Assembly: GCA_023898465.1 (NCBI GenBank)
Contig: CP060223.1
Coordinates: 864,001 to 928,000 of the forward strand
Origin: Candidatus Nomurabacteria bacterium
Lineage (GTDB): Bacteria > Patescibacteriota > Patescibacteriia > HK-STAS-PATE-3
Length of the DNA stretch: 64,000 nucleotides
Direction of reading: 5' to 3'
In this document: piece by piece, positions 30,056 to 62,325 of the stretch
How positions within the stretch are numbered: the first letter of the stretch is position 1
Layout: the number at the start of each line of letters is the position of its first letter
Notes under the pieces: generated by a model
Seen by the model: only the letters and a program-made list of their open reading frames with translations
The model's database searches: none
What the model was told of the DNA's origin: nothing
Position numbers and translations under genes: made by a program

Positions 30056-30146
30056 TGGCGGTGGGAGAGGGATTTGAACCCCCGATACCCTTTCGGGTAT
30101 ACCGCATTTCGAGTGCGGCCCATTCGACCACTCTGGCATCCCACCG
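30056..30146 (-). tRNA. tRNA-Ser (anticodon CGA), CCA encoded
   Basis: Cloverleaf with acceptor ggtggga/tcccacc, anticodon loop cuCGAaa, long variable arm, T-loop ttcaaat. Confidence 0.8.
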
Positions 30147-30153
30147 TGAATAG

Positions 30154-30429
30154 TTAGCGAATTGTATTTTGGAGTAAAAATTTCAGACGCTCACGTCCCT
30201 TTCCCGTCTTCAAAAATCTTTCCTCAAGTACTGCATCATTTTTGTTTGAGAACACCTCATAGTAAACGAGTGACCAATCTTGCGACCGGGATGTATAGCG
30301 CGATCTGCCGGACTTATGTTCGCTTACCCTCTTTTTTAAATCACTTGTACTGCCGATATACTTCTTTTTTAGATGAATACTATACAATATGTATACATAA
30401 TACATATTTCTCCTTGTATCGATCACCAC
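30154..30429 (-). CDS. GIY-YIG nuclease family protein (91 aa)
   Basis: YVYILYS...KYIGSTSDLKKRVSEH...N. Lies immediately 5' of tRNA-Ser on the same strand. Confidence 0.7.
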   Translation of the reverse strand: MVIDTRRNMYYVYILYSIHLKKKYIGSTSDLKKRVSEHKSGRSRYTSRSQDWSLVYYEVFSNKNDAVLEERFLKTGKGRERLKFLLQNTIR

Positions 30430-30490
30430 CTATCCCGCCCGAGGCGGGTCCGCCTTGGGCGGACGACCACTCTGGCACCTCTCCAAAACG
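30430..30490 (-). repeat. Partial duplicate of the tRNA-Ser 5' end (acceptor + D-arm, ~21 nt) plus two GC-rich hairpins, upstream of the GIY-YIG ORF
   Basis: On the minus strand ggagaggtgccagagtggtcg aligns with the tRNA 5' end ggtgggatgccagagtggtcg. It is followed by hairpins tccgcc-caa-ggcgga and cccgcc-tcg-ggcggg. Confidence 0.5.
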
Positions 30491-50992: not shown

Positions 50993-51068
50993 GCGCGCCT
51001 AGCTCAATGGTTAGAGCAGTCGGCTTATATCCGACCGGTTCCAGGTTCGAGCCCTGGGGCGCGCACCA
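50993..51068 (+). tRNA. tRNA with anticodon TAT (Ile, AUA-reading), CCA encoded
   Basis: Acceptor gcgcgcc/ggcgcgc, anticodon stem gtcgg/ccgac, loop cuUAUau, T-loop ttcgagc. Confidence 0.7.
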
Positions 51069-51117
51069 GGCTTAAAATGAAAACGACCGTAGCGAATTGC
51101 TGCGGCCGTCTTAGTGT

Positions 51118-51531
51118 TCATTCCTCCTGCCTTGGTGGAGCAACGGGCTCATCTTCAAGGAAACGAGCTTCCGGAAAAGCCACCTCCAGGACACCTAAGA
51201 GATCCTTTGTAGACTGTCCTCTCTTAGGTCCAACATAGAACGCCTGCTCGGCAGTTTCACCATCAGACTCCACCCTCACTACCAAGCGAGGTTGAGTGCC
51301 CTTATGCACGCGCACACCAGCTGGATCCGACCCATTTACCCGATGTAAACCTCCCTCCCGACGTACAGCGAGATCAAGTCGACCAAGTTGAACACGAAAG
51401 TCATGGGCTTTCCTGCGGAGCTCCGGATGCGTACAAGTAGACGTAAGCGGCGCTTCATTTGGCCTGGGTAGATGCCCAAAGTCCACGTGCATGCTTCCTC
51501 TTCTACTTCCCATGGAATACCTCCATAACAA
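51118..51531 (-). CDS. Hypothetical protein, GC-rich (weak Hsp20-like resemblance only)
   Basis: ORF present. ...GVLEVAFPEARF faintly recalls an alpha-crystallin C-terminus. The assignment is not secure. Confidence 0.35.
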   Translation of the reverse strand: MLWRYSMGSRRGSMHVDFGHLPRPNEAPLTSTCTHPELRRKAHDFRVQLGRLDLAVRREGGLHRVNGSDPAGVRVHKGTQPRLVVRVESDGETAEQAFYVGPKRGQSTKDLLGVLEVAFPEARFLEDEPVAPPRQEE

Positions 51532-51636
51532 AAACTCAAAGAGCCGCCCTCAAAGTACCCTAGGAACATGTCATCGTCAAATGTGGCGTCCGCTTGACCA
51601 GAAGCCCTGTTCTCGCTACACTCTACGGCGTTATAT

Positions 51637-51713
51637 GGGCGGTTAGCTCAGTTGGTTAGAGCGCTACCTCGACACGGTAGAGGTCAGAGGTTCGACTCCT
51701 CTACCGCCCACCA
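51637..51713 (+). tRNA. tRNA-Val (anticodon GAC), CCA encoded; unusual C at position 33
   Basis: Identical to tRNA-Val(TAC) at 57204 except in the anticodon stem-loop. The loop reads tcGACac. Confidence 0.7.
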
Positions 51714-55689: not shown

Positions 55690-56025
55690 ATGTCAGAAAC
55701 ACTAGCTCCGCTGCATGACAGCCTTCCTGAAGTGAAGTCAGGTCAGCAGGTCCGAGTCCATCAAAAAATCAGCGAGGGGGACAAGGAACGCAATCAGGTT
55801 TTTGAAGGCGTTGTCTTAAAGCGCAGTGGCGGCAAAGGCCCATCAGCCAGTATTACTGTTCGCAAAATTGGTGCTGGTGGCATTGGTGTAGAACGCATCT
55901 TCCCTCTTCATTCACCTGTCATCACCAAGGTTGAAGTAGTGGGTGAAGCAAAGACACGACGAGCAAATCTCAGCTATCTCCGTAAGCCTCGCGCCAAGCA
56001 GCTGAAGATGAAGTCAGTCAAATAA
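55690..56025 (+). CDS. rplS: 50S ribosomal protein L19
   Basis: [33 protein letters not shown]...[21 protein letters not shown]. The start is set at MSETLAP. Confidence 0.85.
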
Positions 56026-56028
56026 GTT

Positions 56029-56112
56029 CCTGCGCGGGTGGCGGAACCCCGAACCACGCAGGGTTCGGGAGTCCTGCACCTCACAAGGTGCAGGGTGGGA
56101 GTAAACATTATG
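56029..56112 (+). repeat. Partial duplicate of the tRNA-Leu(GAG) 5' end (17 nt) plus two GC-rich hairpins preceding the GIY-YIG ORF
   Basis: ctgcgcgggtggcggaa is identical at 56030 and 56386. It is followed by cccgaacc-acgca-ggttcggg and cctgcacc-tcacaa-ggtgcagg. Confidence 0.55.
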
Positions 56113-56122
56113 TACTCTTACT

Positions 56123-56371
56123 ATGTCATTCGTTTATATCCTGCTACTTAATAATCAAGAGCTCTACGTCGGATTTACTGCCGACCTTAATCGACGACTT
56201 GAAGAGCATCAACTAGGTAGGAGTGGTTACACAAGTAAGTACCTACCAGTAAAACTACTTTTTTATGAAGCCTTTACCAGCGAAGTGGATGCGCGGCGAA
56301 GAGAGAAATATTTAAAAACGAGTAAAGGTAAATCAACGATACGGATGATGCTCCGTACTACACTGCAGTAA
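56123..56371 (+). CDS. GIY-YIG nuclease family protein (82 aa)
   Basis: FVYILL...LYVGFTADLNRRLEEH...Y. Paralog of 30154..30429. Lies immediately 5' of tRNA-Leu. Confidence 0.7.
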   Translation: MSFVYILLLNNQELYVGFTADLNRRLEEHQLGRSGYTSKYLPVKLLFYEAFTSEVDARRREKYLKTSKGKSTIRMMLRTTLQ

Positions 56372-56388
56372 TATATCTGCGCGGGTGG

Positions 56389-56474
56389 CGGAATGGTATA
56401 CGCGCTAGCTTGAGGTGCTAGTGGCCGCAAGGCCTTGGAGGTTCAAGTCCTCTCCCGCGCACCACGTGAAGCGT
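56389..56474 (+). tRNA. tRNA-Leu (anticodon GAG), CCA encoded
   Basis: Acceptor gcgcggg/cccgcgc, loop uuGAGgu, long variable arm. Confidence 0.75.
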
Positions 56475-56575
56475 GGTGCTAAATAGCTGAGCAAAATTAG
56501 ACATACCACCGTAGCAAAAGCTGCGTTGCTTTTAAATTGGATAGACTCTTCACTGCTTAAACTCAAATGGTCTTC

Positions 56576-60174: not shown

Positions 60175-60205
60175 GTTAAAAAAAACTACTACGCAGATGT
60201 AGTAT
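60175..60205 (-). terminator. Rho-independent terminator downstream of tRNA-Ala(TGC)
   Basis: Minus strand: tactac-atctgc-gtagta followed by gTTTTTTT. Confidence 0.5.
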
Positions 60206-60262
60206 GTTTTCTCTGGTGGACCCTACCCCGCTGGGCGGGGTCAGCTCTGTATGTTGAGATCT

Positions 60263-60338
60263 TGGTGGACCCTACCGGGCTCGAACCGGTCACCTCCGCG
60301 TTGCAAACGCGGCGCTCTACCAAATGAGCTAAGGGCCC
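60263..60338 (-). tRNA. tRNA-Ala (anticodon TGC), CCA encoded, G3:U70 present
   Basis: Loop uuUGCaa. Acceptor gggccct/agggtcc with a G3·U70 wobble. Confidence 0.8.
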
Positions 60339-60626
60339 TTAATTCAGACTATTCGAAACAGGTGAAAAAATATCCCGTAGAAGAGATGGAACAAATCCAG
60401 TCAGTGTAAGAAAAACAATGAAAATCATGAGGATACCGAGAAGCTTTAAAAAAATTCTCGTACCACCCTCGGTACCGAGATGCTGCTCAGCCCATTCGAT
60501 CCGACCAAACCAGTTCATGAAAAAATCAGTCTTGATCACAAGTAGCGCACCTATCAGTATAACGATTCCACCAATTAAATATCGCATAACTCTTCTCGTA
60601 TTATTAACGCCCCCCCCTAGCACCAT
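60339..60626 (-). CDS. Small membrane protein (95 aa)
   Basis: Two TM helices. Confidence 0.35.
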   Translation of the reverse strand: MVLGGGVNNTRRVMRYLIGGIVILIGALLVIKTDFFMNWFGRIEWAEQHLGTEGGTRIFLKLLGILMIFIVFLTLTGFVPSLLRDIFSPVSNSLN

Positions 60627-60730
60627 CGAGTACTTGAGCTTGAAAAGCTAAGTACGAGATGAAAAGCGGCACGTTTGCAAAGGGCGCAGTCCGGCTTGGC
60701 CGGGCAAAGCCTGGAGCAAACGATGACGTG

Positions 60731-60807
60731 TGGTGGGCGATCCAGGAATCGAACCTGGGACCTCGTCATTATCAGTGACGCGCTCTAACCAACTGAGCTA
60801 ATCGCCC
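60731..60807 (-). tRNA. tRNA-Ile (anticodon GAT), CCA encoded
   Basis: Loop cuGAUaa. Acceptor gggcgat/atcgccc. Confidence 0.8.
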
Positions 60808-60854
60808 ATGTTTGTTCCCCGTGGAACATGATGTAAAACTACATAACAACGCGG

Positions 60855-60940
60855 TGGTGCCGCCGGTCGGACTTGAACCGACATGAGGTTACCCTCAAGG
60901 GATTTTAAGTCCCTCGTGTCTACCATTCCACCACGGCGGC
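60855..60940 (-). tRNA. tRNA-Leu (anticodon TAA), CCA encoded
   Basis: Loop cuUAAaa. Long variable arm. Confidence 0.75.
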
Positions 60941-61043
60941 AAGCATTCAAAGCGAATACATGCCATATTTCAACACAAGAATGTCATTCATGCAAGACCA
61001 GCAGGAACCACATGCTAACACGAGTATTTCGGAAAAACAAGAC

Positions 61044-61721
61044 TTACTCGGGTTTATTAAACTCAATCTGCGAAGTAGACTCTTTGCTTCTGCGACTTTT
61101 AATAAACTCCCAGAGGGCGGGCAATAATGAAATAGCAATGATAGCAACTACGACAAAACTAAAATTCTCCTGGATAAAAGGAAGCCTGCCAAAAAAATAT
61201 CCTCCGAACAAGAAAATGCTGACCCAGAGGAATGCTCCAAGCACATTATAAGTGAAAAAGTGACGATATCGCATTAAGCCAACACCTGCAACAAAGGGAG
61301 CTATGGTACGAACAATTGGAACAAATCTCGCAATGACAATTGTCTTTGCTCCATACCTTTCATAAAAACGATGGGTACGGTCAAGATGCTCCTTCCTTAG
61401 CCAACGAGAATTTCTCAACTCATATACTCTTCGACCAAGGTGCTTCCCTATCCAATAGTTTAATCCATCGCCTAACACAGCCGCAGTAAACAGCAAGGCA
61501 AAGAGAAGTATAATATTTAGTGACCCTGCATCAGACAGCGCTCCAGCGGCAAAAAGAAGCGAATCCCCTGGCAAGAAGGGCATAATCACAATGCCCGTCT
61601 CAAGGAAGACAATACCAAAAAGAAGCGCATAGACCCAGGTGCCGTATGTGCTTATAGCTATTCCAAGGCTTTCATCTAAGTGGAGAAAGTATTGAGAAAT
61701 AGTGTGTAATAGCTCGTTCAA
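61044..61721 (-). CDS. DedA/SNARE-associated family membrane protein
   Basis: VYALLFGIVFLETGIVIMPFLPGDSLLFAAGAL core motif. Confidence 0.8.
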   Translation of the reverse strand: MNELLHTISQYFLHLDESLGIAISTYGTWVYALLFGIVFLETGIVIMPFLPGDSLLFAAGALSDAGSLNIILLFALLFTAAVLGDGLNYWIGKHLGRRVYELRNSRWLRKEHLDRTHRFYERYGAKTIVIARFVPIVRTIAPFVAGVGLMRYRHFFTYNVLGAFLWVSIFLFGGYFFGRLPFIQENFSFVVVAIIAISLLPALWEFIKSRRSKESTSQIEFNKPE

Positions 61722-61820
61722 CTTGAATTAGATAATTGTTTCAGTATTTAGTCAAAATGTTATTTTATTTTTTTTGGCTAACTTTAGTGAGGCGATGTTC
61801 CTCGAGGAACTTTTTAATTG

Positions 61821-61895
61821 TGGTGGACCAGAGGGGAGTTGAACCCCTGACCCCTGCAATGCGAATGCAGTGCTCTACCACTGAGCTACTGGCCC
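61821..61895 (-). tRNA. tRNA-Ala (anticodon CGC), CCA encoded, G3:U70
   Basis: Loop uuCGCau. Confidence 0.8.
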
Positions 61896-61945
61896 TAGTG
61901 TGTTCCTCGTGGAACAAACGGATGGGAGGCCTAAATTATCTAACG

Positions 61946-62021
61946 TGGTGGACCCTACCGGGCTCGAACCGGTCACCTCTTCCATGCCATGGAAGCGCTC
62001 TACCAAATGAGCTAAGGGCCC
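61946..62021 (-). tRNA. tRNA-Ala (anticodon GGC), CCA encoded
   Basis: Identical to Ala(TGC) outside the anticodon arm. Loop auGGCau. Confidence 0.75.
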
Positions 62022-62073
62022 ATGTGAACTACGGATATTTTAAGCTTCTTTTCTCCGTACCTGCCTCAGCCTT

Positions 62074-62145
62074 TGCCCCCACCATGAATCGAACATGGAT
62101 CCAGGGCTTAGGAGTCCCTTGTTCTATCCTTTGAACTATGGGGGC
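62074..62145 (-). tRNA. tRNA-Arg (anticodon CCT); CCA not encoded
   Basis: Acceptor gccccca/tgggggc. Loop cuCCUaa. There is an A31·G39 mismatch at the base of the anticodon stem. Confidence 0.65.
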
Positions 62146-62325
62146 AGGGGCGGCGGCAGGCAATTTTCTTTTACCCGAGATTTTGTAACTTTTGTAAAAA
62201 GTTATTTTTTTGCTAGCCTTTGCAAAAAATAAGCGTCGTAGAATATTATGTTAAAAATGCATCTAAGTTACGAGCCATTATTACACCAAGTGGCCATTTT
62301 CGCAATGCCTAAAGAGCCAGATCGA

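Follow-up and report, generated by a model that had tools for sequence, protein, structure and literature searches.

The 64,000-nucleotide (nt) stretch of Candidatus Nomurabacteria bacterium DNA analysed here (contig CP060223.1, positions 864,001 to 928,000; referred to below as the window) carries two copies of a compact arrangement, in which a truncated copy of a tRNA 5' end is followed by twin GC hairpins, a small open reading frame (ORF) for a GIY-YIG nuclease and an intact tRNA gene (Table 1). The first copy, at tRNA-Ser(CGA), extends from 30484 to 30056 on the minus strand, with an element of ~340 nt, and all the parts listed in the original prediction for this locus, namely, the tRNA 5' copy, the twin hairpins, the GIY-YIG ORF and the intact tRNA-Ser, are present where it had placed them. 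Its GIY-YIG ORF likewise stands, but not the proposed length of 91 amino acids (aa): the mechanical ORF runs from 30429 to 30154, while the likely start codon is the ATG at 30405, with AAGGAG upstream, which gives 83 aa. This ATG-start form of the protein is an exact entry on record (Ca. Nomurabacteria). Eight nt lie between the ORF stop codon and tRNA-Ser(CGA). The same architecture was recovered, as predicted, at tRNA-Leu(GAG) (56032-56464), with the same order of parts on the plus strand and with longer hairpins; there, the stop codon of rplS is at 56025, and the Leu remnant begins 6 nt later. The two GIY-YIG ORFs are the sole copies in the window, and twin-type hairpins are found solely at its tRNA-linked sites.

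Table 1. Features of the two GIY-YIG/tRNA arrangements and of the ORF-less unit in the window
Feature	Position	Strand	Remark
Truncated tRNA-Ser 5' copy (nt 1-21), GGAGAGGTGCCAGAGTGGTCG	30484-30464	-	18/21 vs adjacent tRNA-Ser 5' end
Twin GC hairpins, family A, 30 nt total	30434..30463	-	perfect stems
First Ser hairpin, TCCGCC-CAA-GGCGGA	30463-30449	-	perfect
Second Ser hairpin, CCCGCC-TCG-GGCGGG	30448-30434	-	perfect
28-nt leader, hairpins to start codon	30406..30433	-	Shine-Dalgarno AAGGAG at 30415-30410
GIY-YIG nuclease ORF, 83 aa, catalytic domain only	30154..30405	-	Pfam PF01541, E = 3.5e-16
Intact tRNA-Ser(CGA)	30145-30056	-	ARAGORN; Rfam tRNA 56 bits
tRNA-Leu(GAG) remnant, nt 1-15	56032-56046	+	exact 15-mer, unique in window
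Twin hairpins, family C	56048..56094	+	fold z = -4.7
First Leu hairpin, CCCGAACC-ACGCAG-GGTTCGGG	56048-56069	+	
Second Leu hairpin, CCTGCACCT-CACA-AGGTGCAGG	56073-56094	+	
Second GIY-YIG ORF, 82 aa	56123..56371	+	40% identical to Ser-locus ORF
Intact tRNA-Leu(GAG)	56379..56464	+	7 nt past ORF stop codon
ORF-less unit, GAGC + hairpin ACCCCGC-CCA-GCGGGGT + AGGGTCCACCA	60214..60247	-	

At the Leu locus the exact repeat comprises the first 15 nt of the tRNA, or 17 nt including the preceding CT. The Ser 21-mer, searched with up to 3 mismatches, has a single occurrence on both strands of the window (128 kb), and the chance of such a match within 200 nt is ~1e-6 by a uniform-model estimate; the concern that the 5' similarity might not be significant is thereby removed. 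However, the Ser fragment is not simply a diverged copy of the adjacent tRNA, as had been proposed. All three mismatches are in the acceptor stem, which reads GGAGAGG in the remnant versus GGTGGGA in the intact tRNA, and the remnant strand GGAGAGG is unable to pair with the 3' strand TCCCACC of the intact tRNA-Ser. Since the mismatches are all in the acceptor stem, they point to a different tRNA-Ser gene as the source of the remnant, and the tRNA-Ser(CGA) at this locus is the working tRNA, having presumably arrived with the cassette. Past the hairpins, we found no further tRNA homology at the Ser locus and just TGG at the Leu locus, unlike at many related loci. No partial duplicate was detected within 700 nt of any window tRNA other than those for Ser, Leu(GAG) and Ala(TGC).

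We collected a first set of 80 related loci by a family-profile search of one-genome-per-species contigs; these are Patescibacteria-type metagenome-assembled genomes by their titles and protein names. A codirectional tRNA starts at most 130 nt downstream in 70 of the 81 homologous ORFs that have at least 110 nt of downstream sequence, where ~2.9% would be expected from tRNA density, and the median gap between the stop codon and the tRNA in these 70 cases is 1 nt. The predicted compact, recurrent element tied to tRNA genes is borne out by these numbers, and a family located at non-tRNA sites only is not what its relatives display. The tRNA partners in this set are tRNA-Ser with all four anticodons (61), followed by Thr, Asp, Tyr and Cys. 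At least 53 of the 75 loci with both an ORF and a tRNA contain part of that tRNA a second time, beginning from its nt 1-3 and located at 40-130 nt on the upstream side of the ORF. With the Leu-linked protein as the query, we retrieved a further 80 loci from metagenomes. In this second set the layout recurs at tRNAs for Leu, Gln, Glu, Arg and Ser, and there are in addition an alternative order (tRNA, hairpins, ORF) at Asn and Gln, and a GIY-YIG clade with neither a tRNA nor hairpins.

In members of this non-tRNA-linked clade (L142-L169; L109, L112, L140 and L141), the N-terminus is extended by a conserved MPGSEN-like stretch. At ~100 nt upstream of the ORF in L109, L112, L140 and L141 there is an inverted repeat that is long and imperfect, GGGGTAGTAGAAATTGGAC ... 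GTCCAATTTTCACTACCCC, and in some non-tRNA-linked members the inverted repeat holds hairpins resembling those of the window Ser locus (family A, see below) in its loop. As to the tRNA-linked members, gene calls often run into the tRNA, giving C-termini such as ...GEVAEWSKAAGC, and in about one quarter of the loci (e.g., P0057, P0025 and P0022) the ORF is open up to the tRNA and continues for 15-40 nt inside it. In such cases, cleavage by RNase P at tRNA +1 would yield a non-stop mRNA; the read-through could link expression of the nuclease with tRNA processing, or be no more than a gene-calling artefact. At L174 (1570-1915), an 82-aa GIY-YIG ORF at a 99% identical locus was missed by the index gene caller, and annotation-based counts of the family are therefore too low. 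The contigs of cassettes L002, L006, L009, L010, L017, L027 and others, which come from binchicken and SRP co-assemblies, are titled 'uncultured Gammaproteobacteria', 'Pseudomonadales' or 'Bdellovibrionales'; these titles are probably placeholders or errors, not evidence of a wide host range.

The hairpins had been described as lying simply beside the tRNA copy. In related loci, however, they are located inside the truncated copy, with tRNA homology again on their far side; once the hairpins are taken out, the remnant can be aligned to the intact tRNA with no gap or duplication at the insertion point. Among 39 such clean insertions, 34 of them exactly 30 nt long, the insertion points follow tRNA nt 11-14 (26 cases), 20-23 (5) and 34-36 (8), i.e., they are in the D-loop and within the anticodon, and T-loop insertions occur in L003 and in 3' remnants. 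The tRNA homology extends 4-26 nt past the hairpins and the start codon comes 3-30 nt further; the distance from the hairpins to the start codon is 5-40 nt, with a polarity that is fixed relative to the transcript. Single hairpins (L050, L014 and L036) and hairpins nested in the loops of other hairpins (L032 and L051) also occur. A count over 356 kb of loci gave 209 such hairpins, of which 151 (72%) are within 200 nt upstream of a GIY-YIG start. When we excised small GC hairpins from ~600 kb of loci and reran ARAGORN, no otherwise complete tRNA carrying hairpins was found, and therefore hairpin insertion appears to be tied to truncated copies. The possibility that the hairpins form an intron of the working tRNA was ruled out by the same procedure, as the excision exposes no new full-length tRNA.

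We found the 15+15-nt unit of the window Ser locus (family A) at 54 distinct related loci, and 11 of its 12 pairs show compensatory changes. Over these 54 distinct 30-nt units, 106 double-sided cells were observed versus 28 in shuffles; as the units were selected for at most 2 stem mismatches, their 99% pairing is partly by construction, whereas the compensatory changes are not. Covariation is found for the pairing within each hairpin, but for cross-hairpin pairing it does not exceed that in shuffles, and we rejected the reading of the 30 nt as one long palindrome. On the tRNA strand, the first loop begins with C in 48 of the 54 units and the second with T in 49, a polarity that is likewise fixed in 3' remnants and ORF-less units; the inner cores GCC-CAA-GGC and GCC-TTG-GGC are conserved, and the few non-Watson-Crick stem pairs include both G-T and A-C, favouring neither RNA nor DNA as the folded species. 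Together with family A, we distinguish three hairpin families, the others being family B (20+20 nt, GCCNNGTC-ATTC-GACNNGGC) and family C (~22+22 nt), which is that of the window Leu locus and occurs also in L092, L103 and L122. The Leu hairpins recur in L172 with the stems kept and the loops altered. Hairpin family tracks nuclease clade, with a nearest-neighbour concordance of 81/90 against a shuffled mean of 57.6 and a maximum of 70. In L150, two units of different nuclease clades, each with its own hairpin family, are stacked before one tRNA-Ser(CGA). Between L022 and L025, the block of remnant, hairpins and leader differs at 5 of ~85 nt, compared with a synonymous divergence (dS) of 0.47 in the ORF, and the ORF-to-tRNA spacer and the flanks are not alignable. 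Since this block is conserved, the remnant and hairpins are under constraint and not decaying scars. Furthermore, the terminator scan reported no intrinsic terminator for the twin hairpins at either window locus, where they precede the leader and start codon and have no T-run, and Rfam returned tRNAs and no other family, both for the whole window at gathering thresholds and for each locus at E <= 10. A different hairpin motif, CCCCGCAC ... GTGCGGGG, is found around tRNA-Ser(CGA) and its two 3' remnants at L087 (2690-3000), and it possibly represents a fourth hairpin family that has no resident ORF.

A comparison of tRNA-Ser and tRNA-Leu loci for empty sites had been proposed along with the original prediction, and it yielded both empty and occupied syntenic sites. 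At the Leu locus, L173 is an empty site with an intact tRNA-Leu(GAG) 8 nt after the rplS stop (ribosomal protein L19 65% identical), at the place taken in the window by the 15-nt remnant, while L174 (L19 99% identical) and L172 (88%) have a cassette after rplS as in the window. At the Ser locus, the synteny CofD/PHP/methyltransferase/tRNA-Ser(CGA) is kept and the ORF is present or absent: in the window, the remnant, the hairpins and the ORF are accompanied by a tRNA whose first nucleotides are GGTGGGA; in L083/L084, the same remnant (20 nt) is retained along with a single decayed hairpin, the ORF is missing and the tRNA begins with GGAGGCG; in L086, hairpins and a divergent GIY-YIG ORF are found with a tRNA that begins with GGAGGGG; and in L087, where the ORF is also missing, the tRNA begins with GGAGGCG and there are two 3' remnants, one of which ends TCTCTCC, the partner of a GGAGAG-type 5' strand. 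Thus, a conserved target is polymorphic for presence and absence at both loci. The remnant is the stable resident feature of the Ser locus, and the working tRNA the part that changes.

The remnants are not confined to 5' pieces. About five loci (L004, L007, L015, L039 and L043) have a 3' remnant downstream of the intact tRNA, with hairpins a few nt from its inner end, and a hairpin of any kind is present downstream in 18 of 74 loci. In L015, it is the 3' remnant CGCTTCC, and not the intervening tRNA, that can pair with the 5' remnant GGAAGCG, and in L043 a tRNA-Ser with anticodon-loop hairpins is split by the ORF and tRNA, with ~53 nt, hairpins included, repeated on both sides. Because the halves of the resident tRNA flank the ORF and tRNA in these two loci, the cassette supplies a complete tRNA. 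An encoded CCA is often kept in the remnants and absent from the working tRNA (L039, L043 and L007). The replacement of the resident tRNA at L015, L043 and the window Ser locus is compatible with co-conversion. L024 has a mirror form, in which the tRNA and ORF are followed by a 3' remnant with T-loop hairpins, and ORF-less units were found in L054 (two sites), in L083 and at the window tRNA-Ala. Stacked units, as in L150, are also present in L005 and L049, and L057 has 2 identical units where L044, with an ORF 97% identical, has 1; such stacks may reflect self-attack on the cassette's own tRNA, or merely unequal crossing-over. L020 and L040 have ORFs that are 79% identical, at tRNA-Ser(GGA) and tRNA-Ser(TGA), respectively, with flanks without similarity.

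The ORF-less unit in the window is 15 nt downstream of tRNA-Ala(TGC) (60263-60338), ahead of the real terminator (about 60180-60206). By analogy with L024, L015 and L054, on which this reading rests, it looks like a second 3'-end copy split by a 7-bp GC hairpin, and thus like an ORF-less member of the mirror type. The window is rather dense in tRNAs, with 11 tRNA genes, seven of which are clustered at 60.2-62.1 kb on the minus strand (60263-62146; also 50993-51713). An additional 8-bp hairpin, GCACCACG-TGAAG-CGTGGTGC, lies at 56459-56479, overlapping the last 6 nt of tRNA-Leu(GAG); it is without a T-run, and in L172 and L174 its stems are kept and its loop is altered.

Both proteins encoded in the window match Pfam PF01541, with 59.7 and 53.3 bits against a cut-off of 22.6, and the residues Y5, Y16, G18, R26, H30 and E62 are invariant in 28 sequences including these two; their presumed catalytic roles are those known from I-TevI and UvrC. 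The AlphaFold model (pLDDT, the predicted local distance difference test, 93.9) has the order beta-beta-alpha-beta-alpha-alpha of a GIY-YIG fold. In profile searches against the PDB, the best matches are 1zg2 (BH0048, 2.7e-10) and 1ywl (EF2693, 2.1e-07), followed by SLX1 (1e-3 to 3e-2) and I-TevI (0.14), and Foldseek matches UPF0213, Slx1 and the I-TevI catalytic domain in the same ranking as by sequence. Profiles and the predicted structure agree in placing the nuclease in the UPF0213/Slx1-like branch, nearer to it than to intron or Seg endonucleases or UvrC. Bacterial UPF0213 members are without an established function and are not known to have been reported as linked to tRNA genes, nor did we find such a report in the literature searched. 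Slx1 is a structure-specific nuclease, and YhbQ and YazA have been placed in its family (PMC7017083). The original prediction that the GIY-YIG protein is the only candidate mobility factor holds insofar as no other protein is encoded in the cassette, but with neither ORF having the linker and C-terminal DNA-binding domain, in a total of ~200-250 aa, of the classical I-TevI/Seg enzymes, it is not a classical homing endonuclease. The NCBIfam model grpIintron_endo gives 22.8 bits, below its cut-off of 56 and over the first 33 profile positions only. The ORFs are under purifying selection, with a median ratio of nonsynonymous to synonymous substitution rates (dN/dS) of 0.115 over 43 pairs, and the family is large, comprising 5,904 clusters at 50% identity (E <= 1e-10).

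Taking these results together, we favour, with some reserve, the interpretation that the locus is a selfish, homing-like, tRNA-replacing cassette living in the tRNA genes of Patescibacteria. The cassette would consist of a twin-hairpin cis element, a stand-alone GIY-YIG gene of the UPF0213/Slx1 type and then a complete tRNA gene, and its point of entry would have been a loop-coding position in a resident tRNA gene whose identity is the same or a sister one, leaving the resident tRNA as a truncated 5' piece, sometimes also a 3' piece, with the hairpins near the broken end. The remnant and the intact tRNA could then serve as two homology arms, both within a universally conserved gene, and recombination would copy the cassette to another genome's equivalent tRNA gene, or to a paralogous tRNA, with any flanks. 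Such homology arms would explain why conservation begins exactly at tRNA +1 of the remnant, and would also explain the constrained remnants and the dominance of long type II tRNAs (Ser and Leu). The break that starts the copying is probably made by the nuclease, which probably recognises folded DNA (a hairpin, cruciform or cloverleaf) and not a long sequence, and the twin hairpins are probably its cognate site. Transcription of the ORF, as the leader of the new tRNA, would depend on whatever drove the resident one (the rplS transcript in the case of Leu), and RNase P would release the cassette tRNA from this leader. With the resident tRNA destroyed, the host would come to depend on the cassette tRNA, and loss of the ORF would leave ORF-less scars of remnant and hairpins. 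What the sequences show is the architecture and its recurrence, insertion at loops, empty and occupied sites, replacement of the tRNA, the coupling of hairpin family and nuclease clade, and selective constraint; that the nuclease is active and on which target, what the hairpins do, how the cassette recombines and that it is co-transcribed with the tRNA is inferred. The loop-only insertion, the Slx1-like fold, the hairpin-clade coupling, the 1-nt spacing of ORF and tRNA and an excess of promoter-like sites provide hints that the nuclease would start the copying, recognise folded DNA and have the hairpins as its site, and that the ORF would be expressed as the leader of the tRNA.

A number of observations weigh against this interpretation. 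The dN/dS of ~0.1 and the co-divergence with a syntenic host gene show a long vertical residence and a sustained function; in L022 and L025, this neighbour is 89.6% and the ORF 94% identical at the aa level. No pair of near-identical cassettes was found in clearly different genomes or contexts among the collected loci, the viral contigs in IMG/VR contain 2 weak relatives only, and we know of no vector. With 82-83 aa the protein comprises the catalytic domain and no DNA-binding domain, which leaves the finding of tRNA genes unaccounted for, and that all family members are active nucleases is something we infer. An empty allele should be no better as a target than the intact tRNA of the cassette itself, and no immunity mechanism protecting the latter is evident in the loci. 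How the hairpins enter the loops, and why tRNA homology extends 4-26 nt past them, is unexplained by the proposed mechanism, and the coupling between hairpin family and nuclease clade could be due to physical linkage alone. Finally, the promoter tool predicted no promoter upstream of the window Ser remnant, where by eye TTGATT-17-TACACT can be seen (8/12 match), and the 4-fold excess of promoter-like sites upstream of remnants (26% vs 5.9% in random windows) is weak.

A more far-reaching version of the cassette interpretation, which we put forward only tentatively, is that the twin hairpin and the 83-aa Slx1-like nuclease are a cognate pair, and represent a new class of mobile elements for which nucleic-acid structure, and not sequence, is the guide of the nuclease. 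Its targets would be loops, both those in the cloverleaf of an extruded tRNA gene and those of the cassette's hairpins, and such action of the nuclease on folded DNA would account for the insertions in D-, anticodon- and T-loops as well as in the loops of other hairpins. The tRNA gene would be overwritten by a cassette copy, in an addiction-type strategy in reduced genomes with single-copy tRNA genes.

The main rival explanation is that the nuclease is a domesticated host factor, either a repair or structure-specific nuclease or one involved in RNA processing, in an operon with the tRNA; the tRNA fragment and hairpins would then be a cis-regulatory or stabilising 5' leader, and the remnants old scars of one or a few ancient insertions or local duplications that are inherited vertically with occasional loss. 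Such a factor would fit with the median dN/dS of 0.115, the synteny and co-divergence in L022/L025, the conservation of the block of remnant, hairpin and leader beyond that of synonymous sites, the hairpins located 5-40 nt before the start codon with a fixed polarity versus the transcript, and the near contiguity of the ORF and tRNA. The very large family (5,904 clusters), including a clade without tRNA or hairpins, is also as would be expected for a cellular protein of the YhbQ/YazA type. However, a regulatory leader needs no copy of whichever tRNA follows, be it Ser, Thr, Asp, Tyr, Cys, Leu, Gln, Glu or Arg, and domestication leaves unaccounted for the 3' remnants, the split tRNAs (L015 and L043), the two-clade stack in L150, the empty site in L173 and the change of the working-tRNA sequence at one syntenic locus; two 40%-identical paralogues in 64 kb of a reduced genome of ~1 Mb would be odd for a housekeeping function as well. 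We therefore consider this explanation rather unlikely. A view in which the hairpins are independent palindromes similar to repetitive extragenic palindromic (REP) sequences or miniature inverted-repeat transposable elements (MITEs), moved by a Y1 transposase akin to REP-associated tyrosine transposases (RAYTs) or by replication or repair, and tolerated in dead tRNA copies while being associated with the GIY-YIG gene for unrelated reasons, has to face the 72% of hairpins that are at most 200 nt upstream of a GIY-YIG start. Moreover, the window hairpins are only tRNA-linked, neither window cassette has a Y1 transposase next to it, the hairpin family tracks the nuclease clade even within L150, and the lack of an otherwise complete tRNA with hairpins indicates that insertion is coupled to truncation or duplication. 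Although independent mobility would account for the ORF-less units (L054 at two sites, L083 and the window tRNA-Ala), the nested (L032 and L051) and single (L050, L014 and L036) hairpins and a weak Pfam match to Y1_Tnp (IS200/RAYT type) ~1 kb downstream of one cassette (L086 4612-5136), seen once only, and although palindrome formation at the DNA level could yield perfect stems without selection, we regard it as improbable.

In the original prediction, the element was thought to target tRNA genes by their 5' portion and to regenerate the 5' segment. A model of this kind, in which hairpins, ORF and the first 12-35 nt of a tRNA insert in the 5' part of a tRNA gene and restore its 5' segment, so that the working tRNA is a chimera of the element's 5' end and the resident 3' end, agrees with the remnants that are identical to the 5' end of the adjacent tRNA (33 of 53 loci), which the cassette model predicts equally, and with the fact that most loci are without a 3' remnant (a hairpin is downstream in 18 of 74, and a clear 3' remnant in ~5). 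On the other hand, targeting by the 5' portion is contradicted by insertions and breakpoints in the D-, anticodon- and T-loops and by mirror forms with 3' remnants (L024, L015, L043, L039 and the window tRNA-Ala, to which the mirror or 3' forms L092 and L108 are to be added). Regeneration of the 5' segment is contradicted at the Ser locus itself: the remnant GGAGAGG cannot pair with TCCCACC, and L083 has the same remnant with a different tRNA-Ser(CGA), i.e., it is the remnant and not the tRNA that is conserved between the window and L083. A self-consistent acceptor stem next to a misfit remnant is found in L015, L043, L150, L011, L055 and L065 as well as at the window Ser locus, and we find the model quite unlikely as a result. 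More conventional elements, either a group I intron with a homing endonuclease in a tRNA gene or the att duplication of an integrase island, have next to no probability, even though group I introns are carried by Patescibacteria tRNA genes (PMC13011429) and the sub-threshold NCBIfam match (22.8 bits vs 56) is to a 'group I intron endonuclease'. We detected neither a ribozyme nor an Rfam intron at E <= 10, and the non-coding sequence amounts to only 30-50 nt; the downstream tRNA is complete and needs no splicing, and excision of the hairpins exposes no full-length tRNA. In the ~340 nt there is no integrase and no other ORF between the remnant and the tRNA, and the repeat is of the 5' end. At the window loci, both the intron and the island are refuted by these Rfam, ORF and tRNA-excision results.

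If the structure-guided version of the cassette model were true, it would provide the first biological role for the UPF0213 family, and the fixed succession in which a tRNA remnant, a twin hairpin, the ORF and the tRNA follow each other offers concrete tests of function for this family. The tRNA-replacing cassette would also be a second kind of selfish element in Patescibacteria tRNA genes besides group I introns, in which tRNA function is kept by replacement and not by splicing. The arrangement has consequences for annotation, as ORFs are called into the tRNA or missed (L174) and remnants can be mistaken for pseudogenes or att sites; likewise, phylogeny and binning based on tRNAs have to take into account that the tRNA sequences of cassette loci can be xenologous. 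For genetically intractable organisms, a nuclease that is guided by structure and has portable homology arms in a universal gene might be a possible tool. We found no description of the arrangement of remnant, hairpins, ORF and tRNA in the literature searched, the coverage of which is incomplete, so that this is absence of evidence only. The cassette family is widespread in Patescibacteria tRNA genes and apparently undescribed; we regard it as a homing-type selfish cassette, and there is a fair chance that its mechanism is new.

Among known systems, integrase islands and the group I introns of Patescibacteria (PMC13011429) are like the cassette in using tRNA genes as conserved landing sites while preserving their function. 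However, islands measure kilobases and rely on a tyrosine or serine recombinase, by which the 3' end is duplicated, whereas the window cassettes have a 5' repeat and no recombinase, and group I introns are spliced by a ribozyme, which the cassette is without. The REP/REPIN-RAYT systems, in which REPINs are REP hairpin doublets, share with it GC-rich inverted hairpin doublets, one small enzyme gene and an apparent co-variation of hairpin and enzyme, but REPINs are present in tens to hundreds of dispersed intergenic copies flanking an HUH/Y1 enzyme, while the cassette has few copies, is confined to tRNA remnants and has a GIY-YIG enzyme; the cassette does not qualify as a member of these systems. 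In mitochondria, according to Paquin, Laforest and Lang in 1994, an endonuclease gene reportedly enters an essential gene and brings a substitute for the displaced part, which stays as a pseudo-copy. Short GC-rich single or double hairpins of fungal mitochondria are described as mobile insertions near tRNA genes that are kept in transcripts, with the double-hairpin elements of Allomyces, the GC clusters of yeast and the palindromes flanking tRNA genes in Neurospora as examples (PMC2800124 and its references 12, 14 and 17). These systems differ from the cassette in that they are organellar and the displaced piece belongs to a protein gene, whereas the target of the cassette is a tRNA gene with insertion at loop positions; neither a fixed unit of hairpin, ORF and tRNA nor a family-specific pairing of hairpin and nuclease is known to have been described for them. 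On the protein side, UPF0213 (BH0048, EF2693, YhbQ of E. coli, YazA of B. subtilis) and Slx1 have the GIY-YIG (URI) domain and the conserved residues of the cassette protein, but Slx1 has a zinc-finger domain and needs Slx4, and only part of the UPF0213 family is linked to tRNAs and hairpins. SegB of phage T4 is a free-standing GIY-YIG homing endonuclease encoded in the tRNA gene cluster of the phage (PMC2330249); its site includes a tRNA T-stem-loop motif, and its cleavage leads to co-inheritance with the adjacent tRNA genes, which replace those of the recipient (PMC2330249). SegB is a full-length Seg protein with a 27-bp recognition sequence, acting in mixed infections of a phage, and it has neither a partial tRNA duplicate nor a hairpin element, both of which are present in the cassette, whose nuclease of 80-90 aa is UPF0213/Slx1-like, chromosomal in Patescibacteria and paired with twin hairpins. 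In both systems, however, a GIY-YIG gene is located among tRNA genes, and SegB is the nearest functional precedent of the cassette.

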